Assembly: GCA_964396645.1 (NCBI GenBank)
Contig: CAYNFV010000002.1
Span: forward strand, 1 to 39,689
DNA length: 39,689 bases
Direction of reading: 5' to 3'
Origin: an uncultured Dehalococcoidales bacterium
GTDB lineage: Bacteria > Chloroflexota > Dehalococcoidia > Dehalococcoidales > BS750m-G39
A model generated the notes under the pieces. It was not told the DNA's origin and ran no database searches. It saw only the letters and a list, made by a program, of their open reading frames with translations. Shown here piece after piece: positions 1-13,054 of the stretch; the first letter of the stretch is position 1; each line of letters opens with the position of its first letter. Position numbers and translations under genes: made by a program.

Positions 1-94
1 CCGGTCAGAATAGCCGCCTTGTTTGCTCGGCAACACATTCCATCTTTTCGTTCAATAGAGGCTATGCTACGAACAGATGAATCCGCTAGCCGGT

Positions 95-1111
95 CTATTG
101 TTTATATGGGTAATTGTCTAGCCAGTTCTTAATAGTCCCTTTAGATACCCCCATTAACTTAGCTATTTGCCCTAGTGATAGTCCCTGATGTTTAAGCTCT
201 TTTGCCTTCGAAATCCGCTGGCTCAGGGGTGTCTTTTTAGGCGGTCTGGCTATTATCCCTCCTCCGGTAGCAAAAATGTGACCAAGTTTCTCACTCCAGA
301 ATGATGGTAGGGAATTTTCTACTAGCCCCACAAAGTCACTATCTGGAGCATAAACATAAGCCCACCCTCTCTTATCACCGTTTACGGTAGTAAATGCTTG
401 CTTTGCCTGTGTCGCAATGTCATTAAGTTCTCGTCGGTCAAACTTCAGTTGCAGTAAGCCTAAATCCTTGAAAATTATCACGTTGGCTGAACTGGCGATA
501 TTCCTGTCTATCTGCCTGCTTTCCTGGGAGACGAAAATCAAGGTTTGTTCCCGCTGCCGGGACAGGTTTATTAGTTGGGACATTGCCTTAGCCTCAGCCG
601 CCATGCTAGAGCGGGCATGGAAGGGCATGTACGCTTCATCCACTAGAACAATAGCTTTTGGTGGCACATCTTCCAAGCTAGCACTCATACCTACCCAATC
701 GGGTAGTAGCTTCCTGGCATTTTCCGGTAAACCGACAACATAGGGACTGGCTATCCACCGTAAATGCTCCAACAGCCGATAGCCAAGAGCACTCTTACCC
801 TTCCCTCTCCCACCCAAAATCACAGTAACCGAGGGGTGGCGAATGAGCTTTAGCCAATTTCCCGCCTCAACTGTCTGAGAATCTGGAGCCAGCTTTAATG
901 GCTGTGGTTGAGGCTCTGGTAGGGTAGGTTTTCCAAAGGTCTCATTGAAGGCTTTCTCAAGAATGCCTTTTATGTCTGGATTAGCGAGGATATTGCGAGG
1001 GCTGGGTTTTAAGTTACTACTGGGGGCTTGGCTAGTATAGTCTATCTCCTGCAATATCTTATAAGCAATCCAAAGACCAAGCCCCCACTTAAGAATCTCT
1101 GTTCCTTTCAT
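95..1111 (-). CDS. P-loop NTPase (Zot/AAA-like) with an N-terminal TM helix and a C-terminal helix-turn-helix; mobile-element protein of unknown role
   Basis: 338-aa ORF. Walker A is GGRGKGKS and Walker B is IVLVDEA. The N-terminus is hydrophobic (ILKWGLGLWIAYKIL). The C-terminal HTH is LSLGQIAKLMGVSKGTIKNWL. GAGGTGA lies 8 nt upstream of the ATG at 1111. Confidence 0.6.
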   Translation of the reverse strand: MKGTEILKWGLGLWIAYKILQEIDYTSQAPSSNLKPSPRNILANPDIKGILEKAFNETFGKPTLPEPQPQPLKLAPDSQTVEAGNWLKLIRHPSVTVILGGRGKGKSALGYRLLEHLRWIASPYVVGLPENARKLLPDWVGMSASLEDVPPKAIVLVDEAYMPFHARSSMAAEAKAMSQLINLSRQREQTLIFVSQESRQIDRNIASSANVIIFKDLGLLQLKFDRRELNDIATQAKQAFTTVNGDKRGWAYVYAPDSDFVGLVENSLPSFWSEKLGHIFATGGGIIARPPKKTPLSQRISKAKELKHQGLSLGQIAKLMGVSKGTIKNWLDNYPYKQ

Positions 1112-1133
1112 GATATATTCACCTCACTTCTCG

Positions 1134-1226
1134 GGTGTTCAATACCGTTCAACTAGATATGAAAGTTGAACACCTGGCCGTTCAACTCCGTTCAATTGAA
1201 CAGGCGGCTTGAACACCTTGTTGAAT
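1134..1226. promoter_or_regulatory. Iteron/operator array: seven exact GTTCAA/TTGAAC cores plus one TTGAAT variant in 93 bp
   Basis: GGTGTTCAA 1134-1142, CCGTTCAAC 1145-1153, TTGAACACC 1166-1174, CCGTTCAAC 1178-1186 and CCGTTCAAT 1188-1196. The palindrome GTTCAATTGAAC is at 1190-1201, TTGAACACC at 1209-1217 and TTGAAT at 1221-1226. The array lies between the ATPase start (1111) and the integrase stop (1323). Confidence 0.5.
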
Positions 1227-1322
1227 CCCCACTTTTACCTCACCATTGATCTGCCCATATATATAAGAATTAATCCTTCACCTATCCCCATTGAATTGTA
1301 ATAAAGCCCCTATATTCGCACC

Positions 1323-2333
1323 TCACGACAAGGGGGCCTTGTAGAACCTCAGGCTGTCGCTGAAGGTCACCGACCGCGTGTACCGCTGCACCATCTCCAG
1401 GCTTTCCCACCGGCCTAGGTCTTTGATGGTCATCACGTCGAGCCCGGCCTTCCTGAGCAGGCAGGCAAAGGTGCGGCGGAAGGTGTGGGGGTTACAGGGC
1501 AGGCCGGTGGATAATCTCAGCCGCCTGAGCATGGAGACGACACCCCACCTCTCAAGACCCCAGATGTTGCCGCCGTTCGGCTGAAATTCATTGAGCCAGC
1601 GCCTAATGTATTTTCGCGTGGTTTTGCCCAGCGGGGCCAGCGCCTCTTTTCGACCCTTCCCCATCACCCTCACCGTGCCCGTCTCCCAGTCTAAATCCTG
1701 GGGCCTGACGTTGACCAGCTCGGTAAGGCGAAGCCCGCTCTCGGTGAACATGGCGATGACGGCCCGGTCCCGGTCGCTATCCACTTGGTCGATAAGGCAG
1801 GCTACCTGCTCCCGCGTCAGGCTAGGCAGTATCAGCTTGTCTAACCGCGGTGCCTTCAGGTGTTTAATAGGGTTGGGCAGCTCGAAGCTCTCCTCCCGCC
1901 AGTTGTAGAAGGTCTTAATTGCCCGGTAGTAGGCATGGCGGTTGCCGAGGTTCTCAAACTTGAGCAGGAACGTCTCAATATCCTGCCTCTGGGCCTTGTC
2001 GGCGTTCACCTCGGATAAGAACCGGCCCAGCTTCGACTGGTAAAACTTCAGGGTGGCCAGCGTTACCGCCATCGCCTGCCGCGAGCGGAGAAAGAGAGAA
2101 AGGTAATCGCGCTCGGTCTTGGTGCCCTGACCAGCCAGGGCTTCGAGGAGCCTTTTCGAGGGAGGGCGGTTACCGTGTTTTACCTGGGAAACATAGGACT
2201 TGCTTAAATTACTTAACTCGGCAATTTCGGTCACGCCTAAGTCGTTAAGCAATCGTAGCTGGTAGACAGTCTCATAAGCCTTTGGTCGTGGGTTCAAATC
2301 CCTCCGCTGCCAGGAAAAGTGAGGCAAACCCAT
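1323..2333 (-). CDS. Tyrosine recombinase / phage-type integrase (XerC/D-like); start codon uncertain
   Basis: Catalytic residues are present: Arg in ESGLRLTEL, H-x-x-R in HTFRRTF and the Tyr nucleophile in MVQRYTR. An upstream core-binding domain and an N-terminal HTH-like segment (LGVTEIAELSNLSKSYVSQV) are present. The ATG at 2333 sits in the loop of hairpin 2322-2345. Codons 8-21 (WQRRDLNPRPKAYE) are the antisense of the tRNA fragment. TTG 2252 or GTG 2234 are alternative starts. Confidence 0.85.
   Translation of the reverse strand: MGLPHFSWQRRDLNPRPKAYETVYQLRLLNDLGVTEIAELSNLSKSYVSQVKHGNRPPSKRLLEALAGQGTKTERDYLSLFLRSRQAMAVTLATLKFYQSKLGRFLSEVNADKAQRQDIETFLLKFENLGNRHAYYRAIKTFYNWREESFELPNPIKHLKAPRLDKLILPSLTREQVACLIDQVDSDRDRAVIAMFTESGLRLTELVNVRPQDLDWETGTVRVMGKGRKEALAPLGKTTRKYIRRWLNEFQPNGGNIWGLERWGVVSMLRRLRLSTGLPCNPHTFRRTFACLLRKAGLDVMTIKDLGRWESLEMVQRYTRSVTFSDSLRFYKAPLS
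2271..2312 (+). repeat. tRNA-Met(CAU)-like 3'-half, copy A (anticodon loop to discriminator); att-site remnant, not a functional tRNA
   Basis: CTCATAA (loop, anticodon CAT) + GCCTT + TGGTC (variable) + GTGGG/TTCAAAT/CCCTC (T arm, one U-U mismatch) + CGCTGCC + A = 42 nt. No complementary 5' half lies upstream. Confidence 0.75.
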
Positions 2334-2353
2334 CAGGGTTTGCCTTTAGTTTT
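2322..2353 (+). terminator. Rho-independent terminator-like hairpin directly after tRNA-half copy A
   Basis: Perfect 10-bp stem (AGGCAAACCC 2322-2331 / GGGTTTGCCT 2336-2345), loop ATCA, then TTAGTTTT. Confidence 0.55.
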
Positions 2354-2396
2354 GCCTACCGCATCCATAATGTGCTATAAATACTGGAATGCATCC

Positions 2397-2425
2397 TTGA
2401 CAGATATTTCTGCTTTTTTTAAGTT
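2397..2425 (+). promoter_or_regulatory. Possible sigma70-type promoter of the first AOR gene
   Basis: TTGACA at 2397-2402, a 17-nt spacer, then TAAGTT at 2420-2425. The -10 element is weak. Confidence 0.3.
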
Positions 2426-2458
2426 CCTTGGCTAATCAAATAGAAGAGTGGAGTGTGC

Positions 2459-4630
2459 ATGGAAATACTACGCCAAATCAAATATAAGCGCGCCAGGGTG
2501 GCGGGGGGCTATACCGACCGAATACTCAGGGTGAATCTGAGCTCAATGGAAATTACCATCCAGAAACTGCCCCCCGATTTCAAGAGCAAGTACATCGGCG
2601 GCCGAGGATACGCCCTTAAGCTTATCTGGGACGGCACAACTCAGGAAACCCATTACGACAGTCCCGATAATATTCTGGTAATGGCCAGCGGGCCGCTCGG
2701 CAATGAGCCCGCCTTTCCCGGAACGGGTAAGTTCATCGTCGGCACTATTTCACCTCTGACCGATACCTTTATCGATTCCAACGTCGGCGGTCATTTCGGG
2801 CCGCTCCTGAAACTGGCCGGTTTTGATGCCTTGGCTGTTTCCGGGATATCCAGAGAAGAGGTGGTCATTGTGGTTGACGGCGACGATCAAACCATCACTA
2901 TCGCCGCGGCGCCCGCCTATCCGATGGAAATCGATAAGGGCGCGCTTTCCTTTGGCCAGAGACTGCTCAAAGACATCAATGGTGGCGACTATAGCGACTG
3001 CCTGGCGGCCGTAACGGCGGGGGGAGGCGCCTGCCACGCCCGTTTCGGGGTGACTCACAGCTTATTCTTTGACCGAAGGAGAGGCAGAATTCGCTCCAAA
3101 CAGGCGGGAAGGGGCGGTACGGGAACCATCATGCGGGCCAAGGGGCTTCGAAGCATTGTGGTACGCTCCAGCCTGCCCAAAGTAAACGGTAATAATGCCA
3201 TAGATAGGAAGGGAGTGCGGGAGGCAGGGCGCCAGCTAAAGAAGGTTATCTCTATAGCCGACCCTAAACAGCTCCATTTATCGGCATGGGGAACCACCAT
3301 TCTGTCCGAGTATATGGATAAATTCCACGTCTTTCCCATAAACAACTACCAGTACGGGCATAGTCCCCAGTCGGCAGAACTCTTTGGCCACGTCTTCCGT
3401 GACCGCTACTTTACCAAAAAGATACCCGATGGTTGCTATTATGGATGTAACCTGGCCTGCGCCAAGGGTGCCGAAAATGTAGAGCTGACACGTGGCCCCA
3501 AGGCAGGGCAGAGGGTCAGTGTTGACGGGCCCGAATATGAAACCGTGGGTGCCGTCAGCTGCATGGGCATCTTTGACACCCATTTCGCCATGGAATACAA
3601 CTGGTACTGCGATGAATACGGCCTAGATACCATTTCTACGGCGGTGACCACCGGCTTTTTTATGGAGTGCTTCCAGCGGGGATACCTAACTGTTGATGAC
3701 ACTGGTTATGAGCTGAGCTTTGGTAACATAGATGCGGTGAACAGGTTGCTGCAAGAAACCACCAGCGGTAAGGGTTTCGGCAAGGTTGTCGGCCAGGGTG
3801 TGGCGAGAGGTAAGGAATGGGTCGCCGAGAAATATGCCGCCCGAAATAATACTCCCAAAGATGCGGTAATGGCGGAGCTGAATAAATTCGGCATGGAGGT
3901 TAAGGGGCTTGAGTTCTCCATGTACATCAGTAAGGAGTCGCTGGCCCAGCAGGGTGGCTATGGCCTCGCTCTCAAAGGACCGCAGCATGACGAGGCATGG
4001 CTGATTTTCATCGACCAGGTTTACCAGGAACTGCCAACCTTAGAGGACAAAGCGGCAGCGCTTAAATGGTTCCCCTTGATTCGCACCTGGTTTAATGCTA
4101 CCGGACTCTGCAAGCTCCACTGGATTGATGTGCGAAATCCGGAGGCAGCAAATACCGAGGAACCAGCCAAGAACCTGCCCACACTGGCCCACTACACTCG
4201 CTACCTTAACGCGACCACGGGGAGCAAAAAGACTCTTCAGGATATTATTGATGACTCAGAAAGGCTATACATACTGCAGAAGCTAATAAATTTGCGCCAT
4301 GGTAAAGGGAGGCGAGCTAATGACCAGCTCCCCTTAAGGGCAATGGGCCCCGCCTTCTTTAACGAATACCAGTCACGGGCTGAATACTATGACGAATGGT
4401 TGCGCAAAAATCTCGGGGATGGCAAGCTGCCAGCTAGCCCAGAGCAGCGGCATAAACTCCTCATCGAGAAGAGGAGCCAAGCCTATCAACAGCTCTGCGA
4501 CGCCGCCTACGAAAAGAAGGGCTTTACTAAAGAAGGGATACCCAGGCGTGAAACCGTGGAAAAGTTCGCTCTCATGGACGAACAGGCAAGGAAGCTATTT
4601 GACGAACTGGGCATGAGAGGCTGGACATAA
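2459..4630 (+). CDS. Aldehyde:ferredoxin oxidoreductase (AOR) family tungsto/molybdopterin enzyme, long form (about 720 aa), no adjacent partner subunit
   Basis: AOR N-terminal domain (GGYTDRILRVNLS...YIGGRGYALKLIW). Other AOR motifs are GRGGTGTIMRAKGLRSIVV, the FeS motif CYYGCNLAC, GPEYETVGA and DEYGLDTIS. GGAG at 2450-2453 favours the ATG at 2459 over the GTG at 2453. Confidence 0.9.
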   Translation: MEILRQIKYKRARVAGGYTDRILRVNLSSMEITIQKLPPDFKSKYIGGRGYALKLIWDGTTQETHYDSPDNILVMASGPLGNEPAFPGTGKFIVGTISPLTDTFIDSNVGGHFGPLLKLAGFDALAVSGISREEVVIVVDGDDQTITIAAAPAYPMEIDKGALSFGQRLLKDINGGDYSDCLAAVTAGGGACHARFGVTHSLFFDRRRGRIRSKQAGRGGTGTIMRAKGLRSIVVRSSLPKVNGNNAIDRKGVREAGRQLKKVISIADPKQLHLSAWGTTILSEYMDKFHVFPINNYQYGHSPQSAELFGHVFRDRYFTKKIPDGCYYGCNLACAKGAENVELTRGPKAGQRVSVDGPEYETVGAVSCMGIFDTHFAMEYNWYCDEYGLDTISTAVTTGFFMECFQRGYLTVDDTGYELSFGNIDAVNRLLQETTSGKGFGKVVGQGVARGKEWVAEKYAARNNTPKDAVMAELNKFGMEVKGLEFSMYISKESLAQQGGYGLALKGPQHDEAWLIFIDQVYQELPTLEDKAAALKWFPLIRTWFNATGLCKLHWIDVRNPEAANTEEPAKNLPTLAHYTRYLNATTGSKKTLQDIIDDSERLYILQKLINLRHGKGRRANDQLPLRAMGPAFFNEYQSRAEYYDEWLRKNLGDGKLPASPEQRHKLLIEKRSQAYQQLCDAAYEKKGFTKEGIPRRETVEKFALMDEQARKLFDELGMRGWT

Positions 4631-4658
4631 CCAGATTTGCTGGTTTTCGCCACTTTAG

Positions 4659-4700
4659 CTCATAAGCCTTGGGTCGTGGGTTCAAATCCCCCCGCTACCA
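4659..4700 (+). repeat. tRNA-Met(CAU)-like 3'-half, copy B; att-site remnant
   Basis: CTCATAAGCCTTGGGTCGTGGGTTCAAATCCCCCCGCTACCA. It has 3 mismatches to copy A, a U-C mismatch in the T stem and no 5' half upstream. Confidence 0.75.
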
Positions 4701-4735
4701 TTTCTTTGTGCCTGATTTTCCCCCACCCCCAACAC

Positions 4736-6205
4736 CTAACCAGGGACTTCCACAATCAGGGTCGTGCCCTGTCCTAGTGTTGACTCCACTTCGAGCGTGC
4801 CGCCTAATAGCTTGGCTCTCTCCTGCATCCCCACCAGCCCCAGCTTGCCGCTGCGGGGCAGGTCGTCCACCCTCCCCACCAGCTTGAAGCCCCGCCCGTT
4901 GTCGCTGATGGTCACCCTCACCTTGTCACTGGTAAAGTCGATGACCACGTTGGCCTCAGAAGCCTGGGCGTGGCGCCGGATATTGTTCAGCGCCTCCTGA
5001 ATGATGCGGAAGAGCGAAGACTCGAACTCAGGGGCAAAGCGCTTCTCTTCGCCGACTACCTCCAGATTGCTGCCGATGCCGTCGTACTCCTGCATGTCTT
5101 TCATTAATGAGCGTAGGGCGGGGATTAAACCCAAATCGTCGAGCAGCGAGGGCCTCAAATCCTGCACGAAACGGTGCACCCCCTGTACCCCCCGGTTGAG
5201 CTGCGCCTGCAGGTCTTTAAGGAACAGGACCTCGTTGGGGGCCAGCCCCGACTTCTTACGCACGAAGTTGTCCAGCTGCCGCGACAGGGAGCCGAGAAGT
5301 TGGGCGGTATCATCGTGCAGCTCGCGGGCGATGCGCTTGCGCTCCTCCTCCTGCGCTCTTGTAATCTCCTGAAGGTAGTAGCGCAGGTTCTCCTGCATCC
5401 GCTTCTCCTGGGTAACATTGCGGGCGATATTGTGGAAGCCGATGGGCTCGCCGTCGCTGCTAATCAGGTTGGTCGAGACCATGCATATCGCCTCCGAGCC
5501 GTCCTTTTTAATCAGCCTCAGCTCGTAGGGCAGCTCCACGTAAAGGTGCTGCTCCAGCCGCCGCCCCACCTCCCGCGCCAGCTTAAGGCTCTCCTCACCC
5601 AGAAAGGACTTTACGTTCATCCTCAGCAGTTCCTCCACCGGATAGCCGCTTAAGGTCGCGGCGGCTTTGTTGGCCGTCTGGATGTTGCCCTCCAGGTCGT
5701 GCGACCAGATAGCGTCGTAGGCCCCCTCGAACAAAGCGCGGAAGCTCTTCTCCGATTCGTGCAGTGCCTCCTCGGCCTTCTTGCGCTCGGTGATGTCCTC
5801 CAGCGTCTCGATGGCGCCGATGATTTCGCCGTCGTTATTGCGAATGGGGCTGGCGGTGAAGTGGAGCCACTTCCCCCCCTCCCCTATTTCGGGGAAAAAG
5901 TCCTCGGCTTCATAGGCGCCCTCGATGAGGGGTGACTGGCCGTGTTGTCCCGTGTAGTAGGCGGCAATCTCGCTCAGAAGGGCGCCGTCGACGATAAAAT
6001 CGGCCATGGAAGGCCGCTTCTCGGAATAGAAGGGCCGCCACTGCTGGTCGGTGCCGATAACCCTATCCCGCTTGATGCCCGAAAGCGCCTCCAGAGCGGT
6101 GTTCCAGTAAATGACGCGGTGCTGCTTATTGATGACGAAAGAGGGTATGGAAGAGCCGTCGATAATCTTGGCCAGCATCTCCGAACCCGGTAAACTCTGC
6201 GGCAT
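4736..6205 (-). CDS. Cytoplasmic multi-PAS sensor histidine kinase (HisKA_3/NarX-DegS type)
   Basis: There is no TM segment. PAS-like repeats are joined by ITERKKAEEAL-type linkers. The H-box is RELHDDTAQLL, the N-box is NNIRRHAQA, G1 is DNGRGF and G2 is GLVGMQERAKLLGG. Confidence 0.9.
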   Translation of the reverse strand: MPQSLPGSEMLAKIIDGSSIPSFVINKQHRVIYWNTALEALSGIKRDRVIGTDQQWRPFYSEKRPSMADFIVDGALLSEIAAYYTGQHGQSPLIEGAYEAEDFFPEIGEGGKWLHFTASPIRNNDGEIIGAIETLEDITERKKAEEALHESEKSFRALFEGAYDAIWSHDLEGNIQTANKAAATLSGYPVEELLRMNVKSFLGEESLKLAREVGRRLEQHLYVELPYELRLIKKDGSEAICMVSTNLISSDGEPIGFHNIARNVTQEKRMQENLRYYLQEITRAQEEERKRIARELHDDTAQLLGSLSRQLDNFVRKKSGLAPNEVLFLKDLQAQLNRGVQGVHRFVQDLRPSLLDDLGLIPALRSLMKDMQEYDGIGSNLEVVGEEKRFAPEFESSLFRIIQEALNNIRRHAQASEANVVIDFTSDKVRVTISDNGRGFKLVGRVDDLPRSGKLGLVGMQERAKLLGGTLEVESTLGQGTTLIVEVPG

Positions 6206-6214
6206 AAGATACCC

Positions 6215-6880
6215 CTAAGGCAGCTCTTCTAAGGTGAGCCAGCCCTTTCTCAGCCCGTAGAGCACGGCCTCGGTGCGGGAGCCGACCCCCAGCTTATTGA
6301 AGATAGTCCTCAGGTGCCCCTCGACGGTGCGGTTGCTTAAGTGCAGCTTATCGGCGATGTCCTTGTTGGTCATCCCCTGGGCTGCCAGCTTGATGATATC
6401 CGTCTCCCGCTCGCTCAGGTGCTCGGAGGGCCTTTCCAGACCCTTCGCCTTGCCCGGCAACCGGAAATAGTTGACCACCTTGCGCGCCACCACCGGGTCG
6501 AGCACCGGCTCGCCCTTATAGACCGCCTGGATGGCGCGGGTCAGCTCGTCGCCGCTGACGCTCTTCAAGAGGTAGCCGGCCGCCCCGGCTTTAAGCAGGG
6601 CGAAGACGTACTCGTCGTCGTCATAGGCGCTTAAGATAAGCACGGCGACGCGGGGGTTGTTCAGCTTTATCTGTCGCGTGGCTTCGATGCCGTTCAGCCT
6701 GGGCATGGCGACATCCATAATAACCACATCGGGTTTGAGCTCGCCGGCCTTCTGCACCGCCTCCTCCCCATCGCCCGCCTCCCCCACCACCGTCAGCCCC
6801 TTCTCCGCTTCCAAAAGCCGGCGGATACCCTCCCTAGTTATGACATGGTCCTCGGCGAGAAGAACGCTAATCGTACCCAT
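6215..6880 (-). CDS. NarL/FixJ-family response regulator (REC + LuxR-type HTH)
   Basis: VLLAEDH, phospho-acceptor context DVVIMDVAMPRLNG, and HTH LSERETDIIKLAAQGMTNKDIADKLHLSNRTVEGHLRTIFNKLGV. Its stop is 9 nt upstream of the kinase gene start. Confidence 0.9.
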   Translation of the reverse strand: MGTISVLLAEDHVITREGIRRLLEAEKGLTVVGEAGDGEEAVQKAGELKPDVVIMDVAMPRLNGIEATRQIKLNNPRVAVLILSAYDDDEYVFALLKAGAAGYLLKSVSGDELTRAIQAVYKGEPVLDPVVARKVVNYFRLPGKAKGLERPSEHLSERETDIIKLAAQGMTNKDIADKLHLSNRTVEGHLRTIFNKLGVGSRTEAVLYGLRKGWLTLEELP

Positions 6881-7139
6881 AAGGAAAATACCTCCAATTA
6901 ATCATAGCAGAGCCAGACGTCCCCGTTCAAGCGTTAAATCAACCCCCAAATCCAGGGTGGATGGGTATTATCACCTGCGTATTTCTACCTAATACAGAAT
7001 GCGTAGTCGGTGGAAACACTGCTGGAAAACACCCGCCTTAATAGGGCAAATACTGATGGAAAAAACGGGCGTGATAACGGATGGAAAGGGCCCGCGAGGA
7101 GAGTAGCATAAGGGTAGAGTTTATAAGGAGGTCGGCTTC

Positions 7140-7637
7140 ATGGAGGTTAGCCTCGATTTCAGCAAGGTCAAGGAAATCGTCGAAGACTACACGGAAAAGG
7201 TCGATTCCCTTATCGACAGCTACGCCGACAAGAAGGAGCAGATAATATCGCTGCTCCAGGATATCCAGGCCGAGTTCAACTATTTGCCCCAGGACGTCCT
7301 GGTCAAAATCAGCCAGAAGCTGGATATCCCCCTAAGCCAGGTCTTCAGCGTGGCTACATTTTTCCGCGCCTTCAGCCTCAAGCCCAGGGGCCGCCACTTG
7401 GTGACCGTCTGCCTGGGCACCGCCTGCCACGTCAAGGGCGGCCAGAGGCTGGTGGACAAGGTGGAGAGGGACTACAAAATCAAGCCCGGCGAGACCACCG
7501 AGGACATGCGCTTCACGCTGGAGGCAGTCAACTGCCTGGGCTGCTGCGCCCTGGGCCCCGTGGTCGTCGTCGACGGCAAGTACGAGAGCAAGGTAACCCC
7601 GGATAAGCTCGACCGCGTCCTGAAGAAATACCGATAA
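7140..7637 (+). CDS. NuoE/HydC-like thioredoxin-fold [2Fe-2S] subunit
   Basis: Cys motifs CLGTACHVKG and NCLGCCALGPVVVVDG. A TAAGGAGG RBS precedes the ATG. Confidence 0.9.
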   Translation: MEVSLDFSKVKEIVEDYTEKVDSLIDSYADKKEQIISLLQDIQAEFNYLPQDVLVKISQKLDIPLSQVFSVATFFRAFSLKPRGRHLVTVCLGTACHVKGGQRLVDKVERDYKIKPGETTEDMRFTLEAVNCLGCCALGPVVVVDGKYESKVTPDKLDRVLKKYR

Positions 7638-7651
7638 AGGCGAGGGAAGAA

Positions 7652-9532
7652 ATGGTAGAGCCGGTGAGAAAACTACTGGAAAAGAAAGTGGAAAGCCCCG
7701 AGGAGCTGGAAAACCTGCGCCAGTCCATTCTGGCTAAAAGAGACCCCAAGCGCACCTGCATAACCGTCTGCGGCGGCACCGCCTGCCGCGCCTCCGGCGC
7801 TGAAGCGGTGGTCGAGGCCTTTGTTGATGAAATCGAAAGGCGCGAGCTTCAGGTCCAGGTCTCGCTCAAAGAGACCGGCTGCCACGGCTTCTGCGAAAGA
7901 GGCCCCCTGGTCGTCATCGAACCCAAGAAGCTCTTCTACCAGCGGGTCACCCCCGACGATGTCGAGGAGATTATCGACGAAACCATCTTGGCCGGCAGGG
8001 TCGTCGAGCGCCTTTTGTACACCGACCCGACGACCAAAGAGACCGTAACCTATGAGGCTGACGTCCCCTTCTATAAGAAGCAGACCCGGAACGTCTTCGG
8101 CACCAACGGCACCATCGACCCGACCAATATTGAGGATTATATCGCCATCGGCGGCTACGCCGCCCTGAGCAAGGCACTATTCCAGATGACCCCGGAAAAT
8201 ATTGTCGATGAGGTCCAGAAGTCGGGACTGAGGGGACGGGGCGGCGGCGGCTTCCCCACGGGCCGAAAGTGGCAGTCCTGCCACGAGGCTAAGAGCAAGG
8301 TAAAGTACGTTATCTGCAATGCCGACGAGGGCGACCCCGGCGCCTACCAGGACAGAAGCCTGCTCGAAGGCAACCCCCACAGCATTTTAGAAGGCATGAT
8401 AATCGGTGCCCGGGCCATCGGTTCCCACCAGGGCTATATCTATGTGCGCAACGAATACCCCTTAGCCGTCAGGCACGCCCGCATCGCCATTGAGCAGGCC
8501 ATGGACTACGGGCTGCTGGGCCGGAACATCTTAGGCTCCGGATTTGATTTCAACATAACCATAAACAAGGGCGGCGGCGCCTTCGTCTGCGGCGAGTCCA
8601 GTGCCCTCATGGCCTCGCTGGAAGGCAAGGTGGGCGAGCCCAAGGCGAAATACGTCCACATGGCCGAAAAAGGCCTCTGGGAGCGCCCCAGCCTGCTTAA
8701 CAACGTCAAGACCTGGGCTAACGTCCCATTGATAATAAACAAGGGCGCCGACTGGTACGCCCAGCTCGGCACTCAGGGCAGCAAGGGCACCATGATATTC
8801 TCGCTGGTGGGCAATATCGTCAACACCGGCCTGGTCGAGGTGCCCATGGGCATCACCCTCCGCGACATGATTTTTGATATTGGCGGCGGCATTCCTGAGG
8901 GTAAGAAGTTCAAGGCGGTGCAAACGGGCGGGCCATCGGGCGGTTGTATTCCCGAGCAATTTTTGGATACACCTGTTGACTTCGACGAGCTGACCAAGCT
9001 CGGCTCCATGATGGGCTCGGGCGGCATGATTGTCATGGACGAAGACACCTGCATGGTCGATGTCGCCCGCTACTTCATTGAGTTTCTAAAGGGCGAGTCC
9101 TGCGGCAAGTGCACCCCCTGCCGCGAGGGCATCAACCGCATGAGCCAAATCTTAAGCAACATTACCCAAGGCAAGGGTAAGCCCGAAGACCTGGATACTC
9201 TGCAAGACCTGGCTGAGGTCTTGAGCGCCGGCGCCCTCTGCGCGCTGGGCCAGACGGCGGCCAACCCGGTATTGAGCACCATCCGCTACTTTAAGGACGA
9301 ATACCTGACCCATATAAATAATAAAAAATGCCCCGCGGGCGTCTGCCGGGAGCTGGTGCGCTTCTCCATCGACCCCGAAAAGTGCGAAGGCTGCCTCAGG
9401 TGCATCAGGGAATGCCCCACCGGGGCTGTCACCGGCGAGAAAAAACAGCCCCACACCATAAACCAGGATATGTGTATCCGCTGCGGCGCCTGCTACGACG
9501 TCTGCAAGTTCAACGCCGTAATAAAGCGGTAA
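7652..9532 (+). CDS. NuoF/HydB-like FMN- and NAD(H)-binding FeS subunit with an N-terminal [2Fe-2S] domain and C-terminal 2x[4Fe-4S]
   Basis: FMN site GLRGRGGGGFPTGRKW, N3-type cluster motif ESCGKCTPCREG, and C-terminal CEGCLRCIRECP plus CIRCGACYDVC. Confidence 0.9.
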   Translation: MVEPVRKLLEKKVESPEELENLRQSILAKRDPKRTCITVCGGTACRASGAEAVVEAFVDEIERRELQVQVSLKETGCHGFCERGPLVVIEPKKLFYQRVTPDDVEEIIDETILAGRVVERLLYTDPTTKETVTYEADVPFYKKQTRNVFGTNGTIDPTNIEDYIAIGGYAALSKALFQMTPENIVDEVQKSGLRGRGGGGFPTGRKWQSCHEAKSKVKYVICNADEGDPGAYQDRSLLEGNPHSILEGMIIGARAIGSHQGYIYVRNEYPLAVRHARIAIEQAMDYGLLGRNILGSGFDFNITINKGGGAFVCGESSALMASLEGKVGEPKAKYVHMAEKGLWERPSLLNNVKTWANVPLIINKGADWYAQLGTQGSKGTMIFSLVGNIVNTGLVEVPMGITLRDMIFDIGGGIPEGKKFKAVQTGGPSGGCIPEQFLDTPVDFDELTKLGSMMGSGGMIVMDEDTCMVDVARYFIEFLKGESCGKCTPCREGINRMSQILSNITQGKGKPEDLDTLQDLAEVLSAGALCALGQTAANPVLSTIRYFKDEYLTHINNKKCPAGVCRELVRFSIDPEKCEGCLRCIRECPTGAVTGEKKQPHTINQDMCIRCGACYDVCKFNAVIKR

Positions 9533-9544
9533 AAGGAGGTAGTT

Positions 9545-10261
9545 ATGGCTAAGGTATGGATTGACGGTGAAACTTCGATAGAGGTGGAACACGCCGAAGG
9601 CGTCGACATTGTCCACCTCACCGTAGACGATAAAGAGATCGCCGTATCGGCGGGAAAAACAATTCTAGAGGCGGTGGAGCGCATGCACGGCATCGGTAAT
9701 ATACCCGCCCTCTGCCACCACCCCGCCGTTAAGCCCTACGGTGCCTGCCGCATCTGCACCGTCGAGGTCAGCGAGGACGGCGGCAACAGGTTCAAGTTCG
9801 TCGCCGCCTGCCTCTACCCGGTCAAAGAGGGCTTGATAGTCAAGACCCAGACCGAAAAGATAAAGAAGCTGCGCAAGGGCATAATCGAGCTTTTACTAGC
9901 CCGCTGTCCTAACGTCAAGAGGATACAGGAGCTGGCCGAGGAATACGGCGTGGAAAAACCCAGATTTGTCTTAGGCGACCAGGACTGCATCCTCTGCGGC
10001 TTGTGCGTCCGGGCCTGCCAGGAGATAATCGGCAAGTCGGCGATAAGCCTGGTCAACCGCGGCATCTATAAAGAGGTGGCGGCGCCCTTCTACGCTTACG
10101 AGCTTAGCGGCGACTGCATCGGCTGCGGCGACTGCGCCTTCGTCTGCCCCACCGGCGCTATTGAGATGGGCGACGACGGCCGACCCAACCTGCCCAAGGT
10201 CAAGATACCCTACGCCGAAATCGAGGCTATGACGAAGAAGGAATCTATAGCTACCTCCTAG
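9545..10261 (+). CDS. NuoG/HndD N-terminal-like [2Fe-2S] + 2x[4Fe-4S] protein lacking any catalytic (H-cluster or MopB) domain
   Basis: CHHPAVKPYGACRICTVEV, CILCGLCVRACQE and CIGCGDCAFVCPTGAI. The protein is only 238 aa. An AGGAGG RBS is present. Confidence 0.85.
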   Translation: MAKVWIDGETSIEVEHAEGVDIVHLTVDDKEIAVSAGKTILEAVERMHGIGNIPALCHHPAVKPYGACRICTVEVSEDGGNRFKFVAACLYPVKEGLIVKTQTEKIKKLRKGIIELLLARCPNVKRIQELAEEYGVEKPRFVLGDQDCILCGLCVRACQEIIGKSAISLVNRGIYKEVAAPFYAYELSGDCIGCGDCAFVCPTGAIEMGDDGRPNLPKVKIPYAEIEAMTKKESIATS

Positions 10262-10297
10262 AGCCGGAAGCGGCACAGCCCTGCCAGGTTTTTGCCT

Positions 10298-10349
10298 ACA
10301 TCCCTCAAAGACCAAAGCCTCCCTAGTTAGGGAGGCTTCTTGTTTTCAC
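10298..10349 (+). repeat. 52-bp perfect direct repeat, copy 1 (contains a terminator hairpin)
   Basis: ACATCCCTCAAAGACCAAAGCCTCCCTAGTTAGGGAGGCTTCTTGTTTTCAC is identical to 11054-11105. About 17 nt upstream of both copies are also similar (11/17). Confidence 0.95.
10315..10347 (+). terminator. Rho-independent terminator after the NuoG-like gene
   Basis: Perfect 10-bp stem (AAGCCTCCCT / AGGGAGGCTT), 4-nt loop AGTT, then CTTGTTTTC. Confidence 0.7.
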
Positions 10350-10394
10350 TGATGATGTATTTCCCATTCACCAGCCAGAGCTACGAGATGGGGA

Positions 10395-10423
10395 TTGACA
10401 GCCAAGTGCCATAGATATATTAT
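10395..10423 (+). promoter_or_regulatory. Near-consensus sigma70-type promoter of the TerB-like gene
   Basis: TTGACA at 10395-10400, an exact 17-nt spacer, then TATTAT at 10418-10423. GGAAAGGAG RBS and the ATG at 10491 lie downstream. Confidence 0.5.
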
Positions 10424-10490
10424 CAGCAATAGCAGTGAGTGCCAAGATATCTTTAGACTTGCGAATTCAATTCTTGGAAAGGAGTACCCG

Positions 10491-10961
10491 ATGAAAGAAA
10501 AATTTACTCAAGAGGAGTGGGGACTTCTAAAACTTCTACCCTTTCAGGTCTTTATAATGGTGGCTGGTGCCGATGGCCGGATTGACAAGGAGGAGGTTGG
10601 CCAACTACAGAAAGATCTCCGCGACGCTCCGTTTTACAAAGATGCGTTGCACAAGGAACTCTTCATGGACATCTTGTCTTCGGATATCAATGCTCTCATT
10701 CAGGAAGCAGGCAATGCTACTAAGTTACCGGAGCGATTAAGCCAGATGAAGATAATCCTCAAGCAAAAGCTGGCACCTGAGGAATATCAAAGATTTCTGG
10801 GTAGCATGTTTATGAATGGCGTCAAGGTGGCGCGTGCTTCCGGGGGAGGGGTTCTAGGACTAGGAGAGAAGGTCAGCGCTGAAGAAAAGCGCGCCTTGGC
10901 TGTCTTTGCCGCCAACTTTGAGCTTGATTTAGCAAATCTATCCAAGCTCTTCGAGCAGTAG
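10491..10961 (+). CDS. Small soluble protein, TerB/DjlA-N-domain-like (function unknown)
   Basis: 156 aa from the ATG at 10491. The motif VAGADGRIDKEEVGQL resembles the TerB DGxIDxxE signature. The track's TTG start at 10395 coincides with the -35 box. Confidence 0.55.
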   Translation: MKEKFTQEEWGLLKLLPFQVFIMVAGADGRIDKEEVGQLQKDLRDAPFYKDALHKELFMDILSSDINALIQEAGNATKLPERLSQMKIILKQKLAPEEYQRFLGSMFMNGVKVARASGGGVLGLGEKVSAEEKRALAVFAANFELDLANLSKLFEQ

Positions 10962-11000
10962 TAATTTGGATGACCGGTCAATAGAAGCTCGAGGCCGACC

Positions 11001-11042
11001 CTCATAAGCCTTTGGTCGGTGGTTCGAACCCACCCGTTGCCC
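11001..11042 (+). repeat. tRNA-Met(CAU)-like 3'-half, copy C (best preserved; T arm perfectly paired)
   Basis: CTCATAA + GCCTT + TGGTC + GGTGG/TTCGAAC/CCACC + CGTTGCC + C. It has 8/42 mismatches to copy A, including a compensatory pair in the T stem. No 5' half lies upstream. Confidence 0.75.
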
Positions 11043-11053
11043 GTTCTTTGACC

Positions 11054-11105
11054 ACATCCCTCAAAGACCAAAGCCTCCCTAGTTAGGGAGGCTTCTTGTT
11101 TTCAC
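11054..11105 (+). repeat. 52-bp perfect direct repeat, copy 2 (terminator hairpin at 11071-11103)
   Basis: Identical to 10298-10349. It follows tRNA-half copy C after 11 nt. Confidence 0.95.
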
Positions 11106-11124
11106 ATTGACGGTTTGGTGAAGC

Positions 11125-11598
11125 TCACTCTTCATCGTGCCCGGATGCCCGGGTGTACAAAGCTCCGTTGCCGCCGGTAAAAAAGAAAATGGGGCTATCA
11201 ATTCTGTGGATCAGAAGGGGAAGGTGTTTCATACCCCGGGGAACGAAGATAAGGCTGCTTTCCGTGATGATATATTTTTCATCCTCAAGCCAGAACTCGA
11301 TTTCGGCGTTCAAATCGCGCGGGTTTTCCCTGCGGCTGCCCACGAAACCCAGAATTTCATCGAAGTCATGGGTATGGGCTATCTCCATCTGTATGGCTTC
11401 AGAGCCGTGCTTCTCCCAGAGCCAGACACAATCAAAGTAAAAGGAGCCCTTGAGCATACTCTCGTCCAGCGATAGCATGCGGGTGGAATCCACATAATTA
11501 CCGGCCCGCCCCTGCTCCTCCAACCTTCTGAGCACTCCCGCCGGAAGTGTAGAAAAACATTCGGTTATGATGTATTTGGCATACTTCTTTTGGGCCAT
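11125..11598 (-). CDS. Cupin-fold protein of unknown function
   Basis: 157-aa ORF. HTHDFDEI and FVPRGMKH resemble the two cupin metal motifs. A GGAGGAAATG-type RBS is present. Confidence 0.6.
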   Translation of the reverse strand: MAQKKYAKYIITECFSTLPAGVLRRLEEQGRAGNYVDSTRMLSLDESMLKGSFYFDCVWLWEKHGSEAIQMEIAHTHDFDEILGFVGSRRENPRDLNAEIEFWLEDEKYIITESSLIFVPRGMKHLPLLIHRIDSPIFFFTGGNGALYTRASGHDEE

Positions 11599-11738
11599 TT
11601 TTCATTTCCTCCTTCTCACTCTATCGTTTCAGAAAAGCTGGATAATTTCAAGGGCTTTTCACCAGTTTTTAGGCTAATTTAGCCAGAAGACCTCAAGCAA
11701 AATCTGCCGAAGCCAGTTTTTGTGCCTCCCCGCAAAGT

Positions 11739-11767
11739 TTGACAAGGCCAAAAGTTTGATATATCTT
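11739..11767 (+). promoter_or_regulatory. Possible promoter of the GAF kinase operon
   Basis: TTGACA at 11739-11744, a 17-nt spacer, then TATCTT at 11762-11767. Confidence 0.3.
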
Positions 11768-11803
11768 AAGTTACTCTTTGTCCGATTCTGGGAAGGCTTG
11801 GAG

Positions 11804-13054
11804 ATGGAACCTGTAGAAACCGGCAGCTTAGAGAGACAGGATTTGCCCGACGAAGGAGAACGGTACCAGGAACTCCTCGCTTTAAGCCGGGTCTCAGCCG
11901 CCATCAGCGGTCTCTGGGACCTAGACGCTGTCCTCAAGGTAGCCCTGGATAACGTCCTCAAGATCATGAAGGGGACCATCGGCGGCATCCTGCTTCTGGA
12001 CGAGCAAACCCAAACCCTGTCCTACCATATCCATCAGGGCCTGAGCGATGATTACGTCGCCAATATGCGCCTCGCCCCCGGTGAAGGCATCGCCGGCAGA
12101 GTAGCTCAAAGCGGCAAAGCCATCCTGCTGGAGGATATCTCCACCGACTCTCGTGTAGCCCACCCCGAGCTGGTGCGCGCTGAGGGTCTAAAGGCCTTCA
12201 TCTGTGTCCCCATCAGGGCCAAGGATGACGTCCTGGGCGTAATTAACGTGGCCAGCCGCCGGGCACACCGCTTTACCACCAAGGATTTGCATTTGCTCTA
12301 TTCTATCGGCGACCAGCTTGGCGTCGCCATTCAGCAGGCCAAGCTCTACGAACGGCTACGAAAGGCAAGAGAAAGGTACCGCAAGCTCACCCGGCAGCTT
12401 CTGGTCGCCCAGGAAGACGAGCGGAAGAGACTGGCCCGCGAGCTGCACGACGAAACCAGCCAGACGCTTTCCGGGCTCACCCTGCAGCTACAGGCGCTGA
12501 CGGATATGGCCGAGAAGTCCAGCGGTGACACCGAGCTGGTAACCAGACTCAAGAAGGTGCAATCCCTGGCCGTCCATGTACACACCGAGATAAGAAGGTT
12601 AATGACCGACCTGCGCCCCTCGCTATTAGATACCTTAGGGCTGGTCCCCGCCATCCGTCAGCTGGCTGATACCAGGCTCCGCCCCTTAAACATCAACGTA
12701 TCGGTGAAAACTATCGGTAAGGAAAGACGTTTGGATTCGGAGGTCGAAACCGGTCTCTTCCGCGTTGCCCAGGGCTCCATAGGCAACATTATTGAGCATT
12801 CCCAGGCCAAGAACGCCACTATCTCCGTGGACTATCGTGATAACGAACTGGTGCTGCGCATCACTGATGATGGCCAGGGGTTCGATGTTTCCGATATCAC
12901 CGATGTTGAGGAGAGCGGGCGCGGGCGGGGTTTGTTCAGTATGAGAGAGAGAATCATGCTCCTGGGCGGTACCGCCTCTGTTGAATCAAAGATTGGCCAG
13001 GGAACCACGGTCTGGGCCAGCGTGCCAATAGACCACGGTGAGGAACATGGGTAA
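11804..13054 (+). CDS. Cytoplasmic GAF-domain sensor histidine kinase (HisKA_3 type)
   Basis: The GAF region runs from ALSRVSAAISGLWDLDAVL to VINVASRR. The H-box is RELHDETSQTL. DDGQGF and GLFSMRERIMLLGG are present. I prefer the ATG at 11804 because it lies downstream of the putative promoter. Confidence 0.88.
   Translation: MEPVETGSLERQDLPDEGERYQELLALSRVSAAISGLWDLDAVLKVALDNVLKIMKGTIGGILLLDEQTQTLSYHIHQGLSDDYVANMRLAPGEGIAGRVAQSGKAILLEDISTDSRVAHPELVRAEGLKAFICVPIRAKDDVLGVINVASRRAHRFTTKDLHLLYSIGDQLGVAIQQAKLYERLRKARERYRKLTRQLLVAQEDERKRLARELHDETSQTLSGLTLQLQALTDMAEKSSGDTELVTRLKKVQSLAVHVHTEIRRLMTDLRPSLLDTLGLVPAIRQLADTRLRPLNINVSVKTIGKERRLDSEVETGLFRVAQGSIGNIIEHSQAKNATISVDYRDNELVLRITDDGQGFDVSDITDVEESGRGRGLFSMRERIMLLGGTASVESKIGQGTTVWASVPIDHGEEHG

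Follow-up and report, generated by a model that had tools for sequence, protein, structure and literature searches.

A probable array of eroded tandem integrations at a tRNA(CAU) gene in an uncultured Dehalococcoidales bacterium

The 39,689-nucleotide (nt) stretch of DNA analyzed here (the window) makes up the entire contig C2 of a metagenome-assembled genome (MAG) of an uncultured Dehalococcoidales bacterium, a 70%-complete assembly of 1.15 Mb in 126 contigs. Its left part carries displaced copies of the 3' half of a tRNA gene with the anticodon CAU, a tyrosine integrase gene beside the first of them, and redox genes between them. We consider it likely that this arrangement arose by tandem integration into one tRNA(CAU) gene, followed by erosion and by recombination between attachment (att) sites. 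Related genomes are coded here as G0xx or G2xx and loci as L0xx or L1xx, with contigs given after a colon (:C); G000 is the MAG of the window itself.

Three complete 42-nt halves, each starting with CTCATAA, lie on the plus strand at 2271-2312 (half A), 4659-4700 (half B) and 11001-11042 (half C). A and B differ at 3 positions, A and C at 8, and B and C at 9; chance matches to the blocks in shuffles of the window numbered 0.00-0.02. None of the blocks is preceded by a 5' half, since no tRNA was called by ARAGORN anywhere in the window and a search of 1-12500 with Rfam gave nothing above noise. Read from the sequence, the T stem of half C is perfectly paired (GGTGG/CCACC), whereas that of half A (GTGGG/CCCTC) has a T50.T64 mismatch and that of half B (GTGGG/CCCCC) a T50.C64 mismatch at the same position. 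Halves A and B have G-C as pair 51-63, where C has T-A, a compensated change. Half A is identical at 42/42 positions to the 3' half of intact genes in G003, G004, G005, G008, G017, G024 and G025; half B is the same A-type allele with 3 changes, and half C agrees at 40/42 positions with the allele of uninterrupted genes in G006 and G007, which belong to the same genus. An earlier note, made from the letters of the window alone, had described these blocks, their shared strand and starting motif, the differences of A from B and C, the absence of a 5' half and the state of the T stems, and all of this was borne out. Its further claim that A and B descend from another functional allele than C agrees with the intact genes of relatives, which carry either an A-type or a C-type half.

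Back-to-back with half A, as had been noted, stands a tyrosine integrase gene (1323-2333, minus strand). The encoded protein has an N-terminal helix-turn-helix (HTH) domain (HTH_3) and scores 84 bits against Phage_integrase (PF00589; cut-off 27.1), and it contains the motifs ESGLR (from residue 198), HTFRR (283), GRWES (307) and VQRYT (315). The Arg of ESGLR, HTFRR and the Tyr of VQRYT make up the R..HxxR..Y active site of tyrosine recombinases, and the protein stays below the cut-offs of the Xer equivalog models. The longest open reading frame (ORF) runs antisense through half A (residues 8-21). Alignments with most homologues begin no earlier than residue 23-28, so that translation probably starts internally, at TTG 2252 or GTG 2234. 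With such a start, the promoter of the integrase would lie in or beyond the right attachment site (attR) that half A represents.

Between halves A and B there is a single gene, AOR1 (2453-4630, plus strand), with the AFOR_N and AFOR_C domains of an aldehyde:ferredoxin oxidoreductase (AOR). Directly after half A lies a terminator-like hairpin (2321-2346, plus strand), at the start of the homology to a non-tRNA AOR locus in G007 and G018. The homology to orthologous loci spans only 2314-4618, from 1-2 nt after half A to four codons before the stop codon, so the AOR segment was trimmed on both sides inside the array. The last codons of AOR1 are island-end sequence fused to the gene, and on its right side the gene is joined to the motif TTTGCTGGTTTT (4636-4647, plus strand), 11 nt upstream of half B. 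This motif is a conserved right-end (arm) sequence of the islands and is also found upstream of halves 2 and 3 of G005. We observed that over 4619-4630 AOR1 ends in GMRGWT before its stop codon, that the orthologues in G005 and G007 end in GM, and that the one in G018 ends in GL. AOR orthologues occur in 18/201 genomes of the order and in 3/13 of the genus. In G005, G007 and G018 they occupy a non-tRNA locus with a common downstream gene that is missing in the window, and the flanking DNA examined around the eight best AOR orthologues contained no tRNA gene; the idea that AOR is a mobile cassette seen between halves elsewhere was rejected on these grounds. Contig C94 of the MAG, considered as the native AOR locus, was uninformative.

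Half B is followed directly by an island left-end flank (4701-4735, plus strand), starting with TTTCTTTGTGCCTGATTTTCCCCCACCCCC, that is shared with G005, where it follows the intact tRNA as well as halves 2 and 3. Next come, by Pfam matches, a PAS histidine kinase (4736-6205) and a LuxR-type regulator (6215-6880) on the minus strand, and on the plus strand a NuoE-like protein (7140-7637), a NuoF-like protein (7652-9532) and a 2Fe-2S/4Fe-4S protein resembling the N-terminal part of NuoG (9545-10261). The gene contents proposed earlier, namely AOR, a kinase/regulator pair and a NuoEFG-like module, are thus supported by the domains. We refer to the segment 4736-10261 as the operon; it is 88% identical at the nt level to the segment between halves 2 and 3 of G005:C4.

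The array contains at least five scars, two of which are truncated. The first truncated scar (10276-10349, plus strand) keeps the last 7-8 nt of the tRNA (ending in CTGCCAG), followed by a flank with a terminator hairpin, and corresponds in position to half 3 of G005. It includes the first copy of a 68-nt direct repeat (10282-10349), whose second copy (11038-11105, plus strand) overlaps the end of half C; the two copies are 93% identical, and each starts with the last 6 nt of the tRNA and continues through the flank and the terminator hairpin. ORF188 (10395-10961, plus strand), which lies between the truncated scar and half C, and ORF157 (11125-11598, minus strand) are both inside the array and match no family. 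ORF157 is conserved in the genus (81-86% amino acid identity) with varying neighbors, and a homologue of ORF188 (77% amino acid identity) adjoins the ORF157 homologue in G007:C8. The outermost, decayed scar, at about 11708-11743 on the plus strand, reads AAGCC joined to AGTTTTTGTGCCTCCCC, has an internal deletion, and continues into a flank resembling the native downstream flank of the tRNA. Aligned with the tRNA end and native flank of G014, this interval scored 26, with a maximum of 24 among 2000 shuffles, and at the homologous point G009:C1 and G002:C25 keep a 26-30-nt tRNA fragment. The scar is likely to be the original chromosomal junction. Since the decayed remnant adjoins a flank like that of the native tRNA of G014, we place the end of the array near 11717, past half C. 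Half C, which had been put forward as possibly the original chromosomal 3' half, is on the same evidence not the outermost one.

The intact gene from which such halves would derive can be followed in relatives. A 31-nt pattern taken from the half was present in 29/41 related genomes, the reversed control giving 0 matches, and most of the matches fell in intact tRNA(CAU) genes. On the basis of the anticodon, ARAGORN assigns the gene to Met; it may encode an elongator Met or an Ile2 tRNA. An A31.G39 mismatch in its anticodon stem is conserved across the order (e.g. L035 1545-1616). Intact genes of several genera and a second family share one and the same A-type half, T.T mismatch included, whereas in other intact genes the T arm depends on the lineage, G006 and G007 of the same genus having the C-type arm. 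This contrast fits an A-type half brought by the elements and a C-type half that would be the genus's own allele. Upstream of the intact tRNA, 6 kb including the adjoining ABC transporter operon are colinear in G005, G007 and G008, and partly in G006, whereas the downstream flanks in G005, G007 and G008 share nothing. In G005:C4 an intact tRNA and an integrase remnant precede two halves, between which lies the operon of kinase, regulator and NuoEFG-like genes. As a side observation, G007:C2 has at about 69970-72960 (L032 2971-5957) a paralogous NuoE/F/G-like set (40-58% amino acid identity), roughly 2 kb downstream of an uninterrupted C-type tRNA, which is a second association of this tRNA locus with NuoEFG-type modules.

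Integrases of this family are found widely in Dehalococcoidia, in two geometries. In the first, that of the window, the integrase stands back-to-back with a half, as in 11 related loci. In the second, found in G005 and in Dehalogenimonas sp. TCA1, a tRNA or half is followed by an integrase on the same strand, and in Dehalogenimonas sp. TCA1 the units are in tandem, each with its own integrase. More complete loci are found elsewhere: G221:C1 has an intact tRNA and, at distances of 32, 39 and 47 kb downstream of it, three halves, the first of them immediately preceded by an integrase of this type, and in G220:C8 a half with an integrase beside it lies 14.4 kb beyond an intact tRNA. L081 holds at 5900-9960 a 3.9-kb element in a different CAU tRNA (of the CTCATAACCGATTGGTC type), bounded by 47-nt repeats and with the integrase at its far end. 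This integrase is 52% identical in amino acids to that of the window, and because it serves a different CAU tRNA, the family appears to have switched between CAU tRNA targets. By analogy, the window looks like the distal part of a locus such as those in G221, G220 and L081. Together with the colinear upstream and unrelated downstream flanks, the complete loci in G221 and G220 uphold the view that the blocks are 3' halves displaced at a tRNA integration hot spot.

The order across A, B, C and the distal junction is reproduced by contigs from the JGI metagenomes 3300031554 and 3300031650, of which the former contributes a distinct variant (99.0% identity over 9842 nt). The array is therefore not a one-off product of assembly, and the three independent assemblies of the population contain a single arrangement only. 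Another contig of the MAG, C20, runs colinear with the region that precedes the tRNA in G005, G007 and G008 and ends in GTGGAATTGACA, which matches the -35 region of the tRNA promoter in these genomes; on account of both features, C20 is likely to be the left anchor of the locus. The assembly probably broke at the repeated tRNA sequence. The tmRNA (transfer-messenger RNA) gene of the MAG is on another contig, C34.

To the left of the integrase lies P0002 (95-1111, minus strand), a P-loop ATPase with a C-terminal HTH, which has only weak HTH matches in Pfam and weak Zot-like and terminase-like matches in PHROGs. Together with an upstream block of GTTCAA/TTGAAC repeats (1134-1226), this gene forms a 1.2-kb unit in G006 and G010 of the same genus. 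The region (34/80-1240 of the window) recurs there alone with 89% nt identity (G006:C20:5339-6498 and G010:C37:10262-11428), in G006:C20 among ABC-transporter genes, and neither an integrase nor tRNA halves were found on these two contigs. The unit could be an independent small module, mobile or orphan, and since P0002 occurs alone elsewhere, its assignment to the integrase element was rejected as unproven.

Beyond position 1 of the window, L179 1-2118 (contig Ga0315544_1002821 of JGI 3300031554) adds 2.1 kb, in which no tRNA was found. The added DNA has a GC content of 44.7%, against 56.4% for the genome, which fits a foreign element with its integrase at the right end. It encodes a DegV paralogue that is 66% identical at the nt level to the MAG's own DegV gene (C25) and has its best match, 76%, in another genus; a partial membrane-anchored ORF follows. 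Positions 1-55 of the window match exactly, on the reverse strand, the last 55 nt of C106, a contig that carries a CoA-transferase gene. The shared 55-nt prefix marks a fork in the assembly graph, where the JGI contig continues into the DegV gene instead. Differences between strains may underlie the fork, or else a repeat bordering the ATPase module.

Our preferred reading, tandem integration into one tRNA(CAU) gene with subsequent erosion and att recombination, would run as follows. The blocks would be att scars, each comprising the part of the gene from the anticodon loop to the discriminator. An element with a tyrosine integrase would recombine its own tRNA-like attP with the gene, and each such event would displace the previous 3' half. 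The intact gene would be situated just off the left end of the contig, and the window would start inside the newest element, whose HTH-integrase would lie at the far end, back-to-back with attR (half A). Rightward would follow integrase-less remnants of earlier events, namely AOR alone, the operon, ORF188 and ORF157, separated by B, the truncated scar, C and the last scar near 11717, where the old chromosomal flank would begin. The order of these events is itself part of what we infer. Deletions, partly at microhomologies, would have removed the other integrases, and recombination between att copies would have moved the conserved operon into and out of the array. Several junctions have the look of deletions between short homologous stretches, with the T-arm CCCACCC against the island-end CCCCCACCCC in G009, GCC against a second GCC at the last scar, and possibly TGCCAG/GAAAA at the junction of half A with AOR.

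Several features are those expected of islands at a tRNA gene. A, B and C are displaced 3' fragments in the same orientation, and A equals the 3' half of intact genes throughout. The integrase element and AOR are sporadic in their presence (no full-length counterpart of the element was found in the genus loci examined), and the operon varies in position. Between trpA and a MATE gene, G002 and G009 have ORF157, a tRNA-half scar and then the operon, and G006 has the operon without ORF157 or a scar; in G012 the operon abuts trpA at a contig end, the MATE gene being on another contig; and in G014 it is found in inverted orientation 85 nt after the intact tRNA. The site is empty, with trpA and the MATE gene adjacent, in this MAG (G000:C8 ~1535-1760), G004 and G008. 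The operon thus changes location within the genus. At the same site, 1.35 kb separate trpA from the MATE gene in G007, and no trpA turned up within 2.5 kb of the MATE gene of G005.

A number of observations weigh against this reading. The operon is family-wide, being full-length in most family members, with 84-90% identity in the genus and 74-81% in other genera. Its identity falls with taxonomic distance, unlike that of a classical foreign island, and no tRNA fragment was found within about 1 kb of it in 8 genomes. It looks vertically inherited, and we rejected it as recent foreign cargo on these three grounds. The array has one integrase for at least five scars: an integrase lies inside the interval in the leftmost unit only, and neither an integrase nor a remnant of one was found between A and the distal junction, so that tandem islands in the strict sense, in which each member has its own integrase and fragment, are not what is present here. 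P0002 is not linked to integrases elsewhere. The GC content of the segments in the window is mildly atypical (4th-10th percentile), and that of segment 3 is typical. Finally, the proximal end is unseen, as a search of the whole 70%-complete assembly gave neither an intact gene with this tRNA(CAU) 3' half nor a 5' half, but only the initiator tRNA-Met (C42) and one unrelated near-match.

These observations modify rather than overturn what the earlier note had proposed. Its three successive acquisitions (1-2312, 2313-4700 and 4701-11042) stand as far as tandem integration is concerned; the third segment is composite, and because only the leftmost unit has an integrase, the segments would be what erosion left of islands, not three intact ones. 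The array also extends further, is older and has undergone more rearrangement than first thought. Its view of the redox genes as accessory cargo agrees with the patchiness of AOR and fails for the kinase, regulator and NuoEFG-like genes. The comparison of synteny suggested there did show segment positions that vary among relatives, while the family-wide operon speaks against foreign cargo, and the comparison of composition gave a weak deviation that is not decisive.

An alternative that we regard as unlikely, although it fares best among the rivals, is that the locus is an active platform of cis-mobilizable cassettes. Here the HTH-integrase would recombine any pair of tRNA halves, and segments would leave as circles and re-insert at att copies or at secondary sites such as that between trpA and the MATE gene. 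The integrase is intact, and the operon of G005 is bounded on either side by a full att-like junction, consisting of TTTTGCTGGTTTT, about 12 nt, the half, and then GTTTTTTATGCCTGATTTT. Moreover, the order from operon to ORF157 in the window is circularly permuted relative to ORF157, scar and operon in G009 and G002, and the trpA-MATE site, empty in this genome, is occupied in G002, G009, G006 and G012. However, the scars of the window are damaged, that at 10276 retaining 7-8 nt of tRNA and that at 11708 having lost internal sequence, and the junctions in G009 and G002 resemble microhomology deletions rather than clean att crossovers. The lone arrangement in the three population assemblies also argues against ongoing activity, and homologous recombination between repeats would give the same pattern.

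It is still less probable that a single ancient integration was followed by segmental duplication and homologous recombination of the att region, which would have generated the extra halves. The presence of only one integrase would agree with this, as would the 68-nt repeat, which includes flank past the tRNA end as a duplication would. Yet A and B represent a different tRNA allele from C, down to a compensated stem pair; the A-type half is the same across genera, as expected of an element-borne copy; different arm motifs flank different copies; and arrays with several integrases exist in relatives. That the contig is a metagenomic chimera joined at short repeats, as the fragmentation of the MAG into 126 contigs and the 55-nt prefix shared with another contig might suggest, is highly improbable, since the halves are 42 nt long and mutually different and so could not bridge 55-mers, the same order recurs in two other metagenomes, one of them with a distinct 99.0% variant, and the junction of half B with the operon is common to G005.

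Eroded tandem integration, the reading we favor, places the locus among known systems. Tandem islands in tRNA genes (tDNA) and tmRNA genes are an established and well-known process, and the present array would be another case of it. The Islander survey counted 125 tandems of ≥2 islands and 4 of ≥3 (PMC4383910). As in those islands, a tyrosine integrase would recombine a block from the anticodon loop to the 3' end (PMC4383910), the island restores the gene, a displaced co-oriented 3' fragment remains at the far end, and reuse of the site leads to arrays. In contrast to the Islander tandems, only one unit here has an integrase, the scars number at least five with two truncated, and one enclosed operon is a conserved gene set of the family, not foreign cargo.

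The ssrA locus of Dehalococcoides mccartyi, where many direct repeats of the 3' end are found, 11 of them in strain VS (PMC2764846), is a parallel from the same class. There too the genomes are streamlined, a small-RNA target is accompanied by direct repeats, and the intervals between these contain respiratory or redox genes, and the surroundings of each repeat show traces of similarity (PMC2764846). The target differs, as the repeats of the window are 42-nt tRNA(CAU) halves and not the ~20 bp of the ssrA 3' end that define those islands. The cargo is AOR and a NuoEFG-type module instead of rdhA, and the integrase has an N-terminal HTH and two geometries.

In the accretion model developed around ICESt1 of Streptococcus thermophilus, cis-mobilizable elements (CIMEs) are att-flanked segments without recombination genes that stand in tandem with an integrase-bearing element. 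The window resembles this, with integrase-less att-flanked segments in tandem with an integrase-bearing unit: AOR is enclosed by A and B, and the operon by B and the truncated scar (in G005 by two full halves), with no recombinase inside. Unlike in CIMEs, no transfer or mobilization genes were identified here, and several att copies are too decayed to be substrates. There is also a likeness to integrons, in that the integrase reads away from the first site and gene segments are separated by repeats of about 40-60 nt that contain hairpins. However, the repeats here are tRNA halves, and the segments are multi-gene and bidirectional with their own regulators and terminators. The integron-integrase models place the protein far below their cut-offs (TIGR02249, 53.6 against 265 bits; NF011946, 29.9 against 435), and the locus does not qualify as an integron.

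In conclusion, the presented data point to the tRNA(CAU) gene as a hot spot of plasticity in the small genomes of uncultured Dehalococcoidales, paralleling the ssrA hot spot that spreads dehalogenases in Dehalococcoides; in the available literature that we searched, no description of such a role for this gene in Dehalococcoidia was found. The hot spot is served by an integrase family that occurs across the class in two geometries, and the locus accounts for the breaks that MAG assemblies of this group show at the gene. For annotation, an AOR- or NuoEFG-type module beside tRNA scars is not automatically foreign cargo, as the NuoEFG operon is a conserved trait of the family that relocates. If the unlikely alternative of an active platform were true, streamlined Dehalococcoidales could reshuffle even conserved redox operons.

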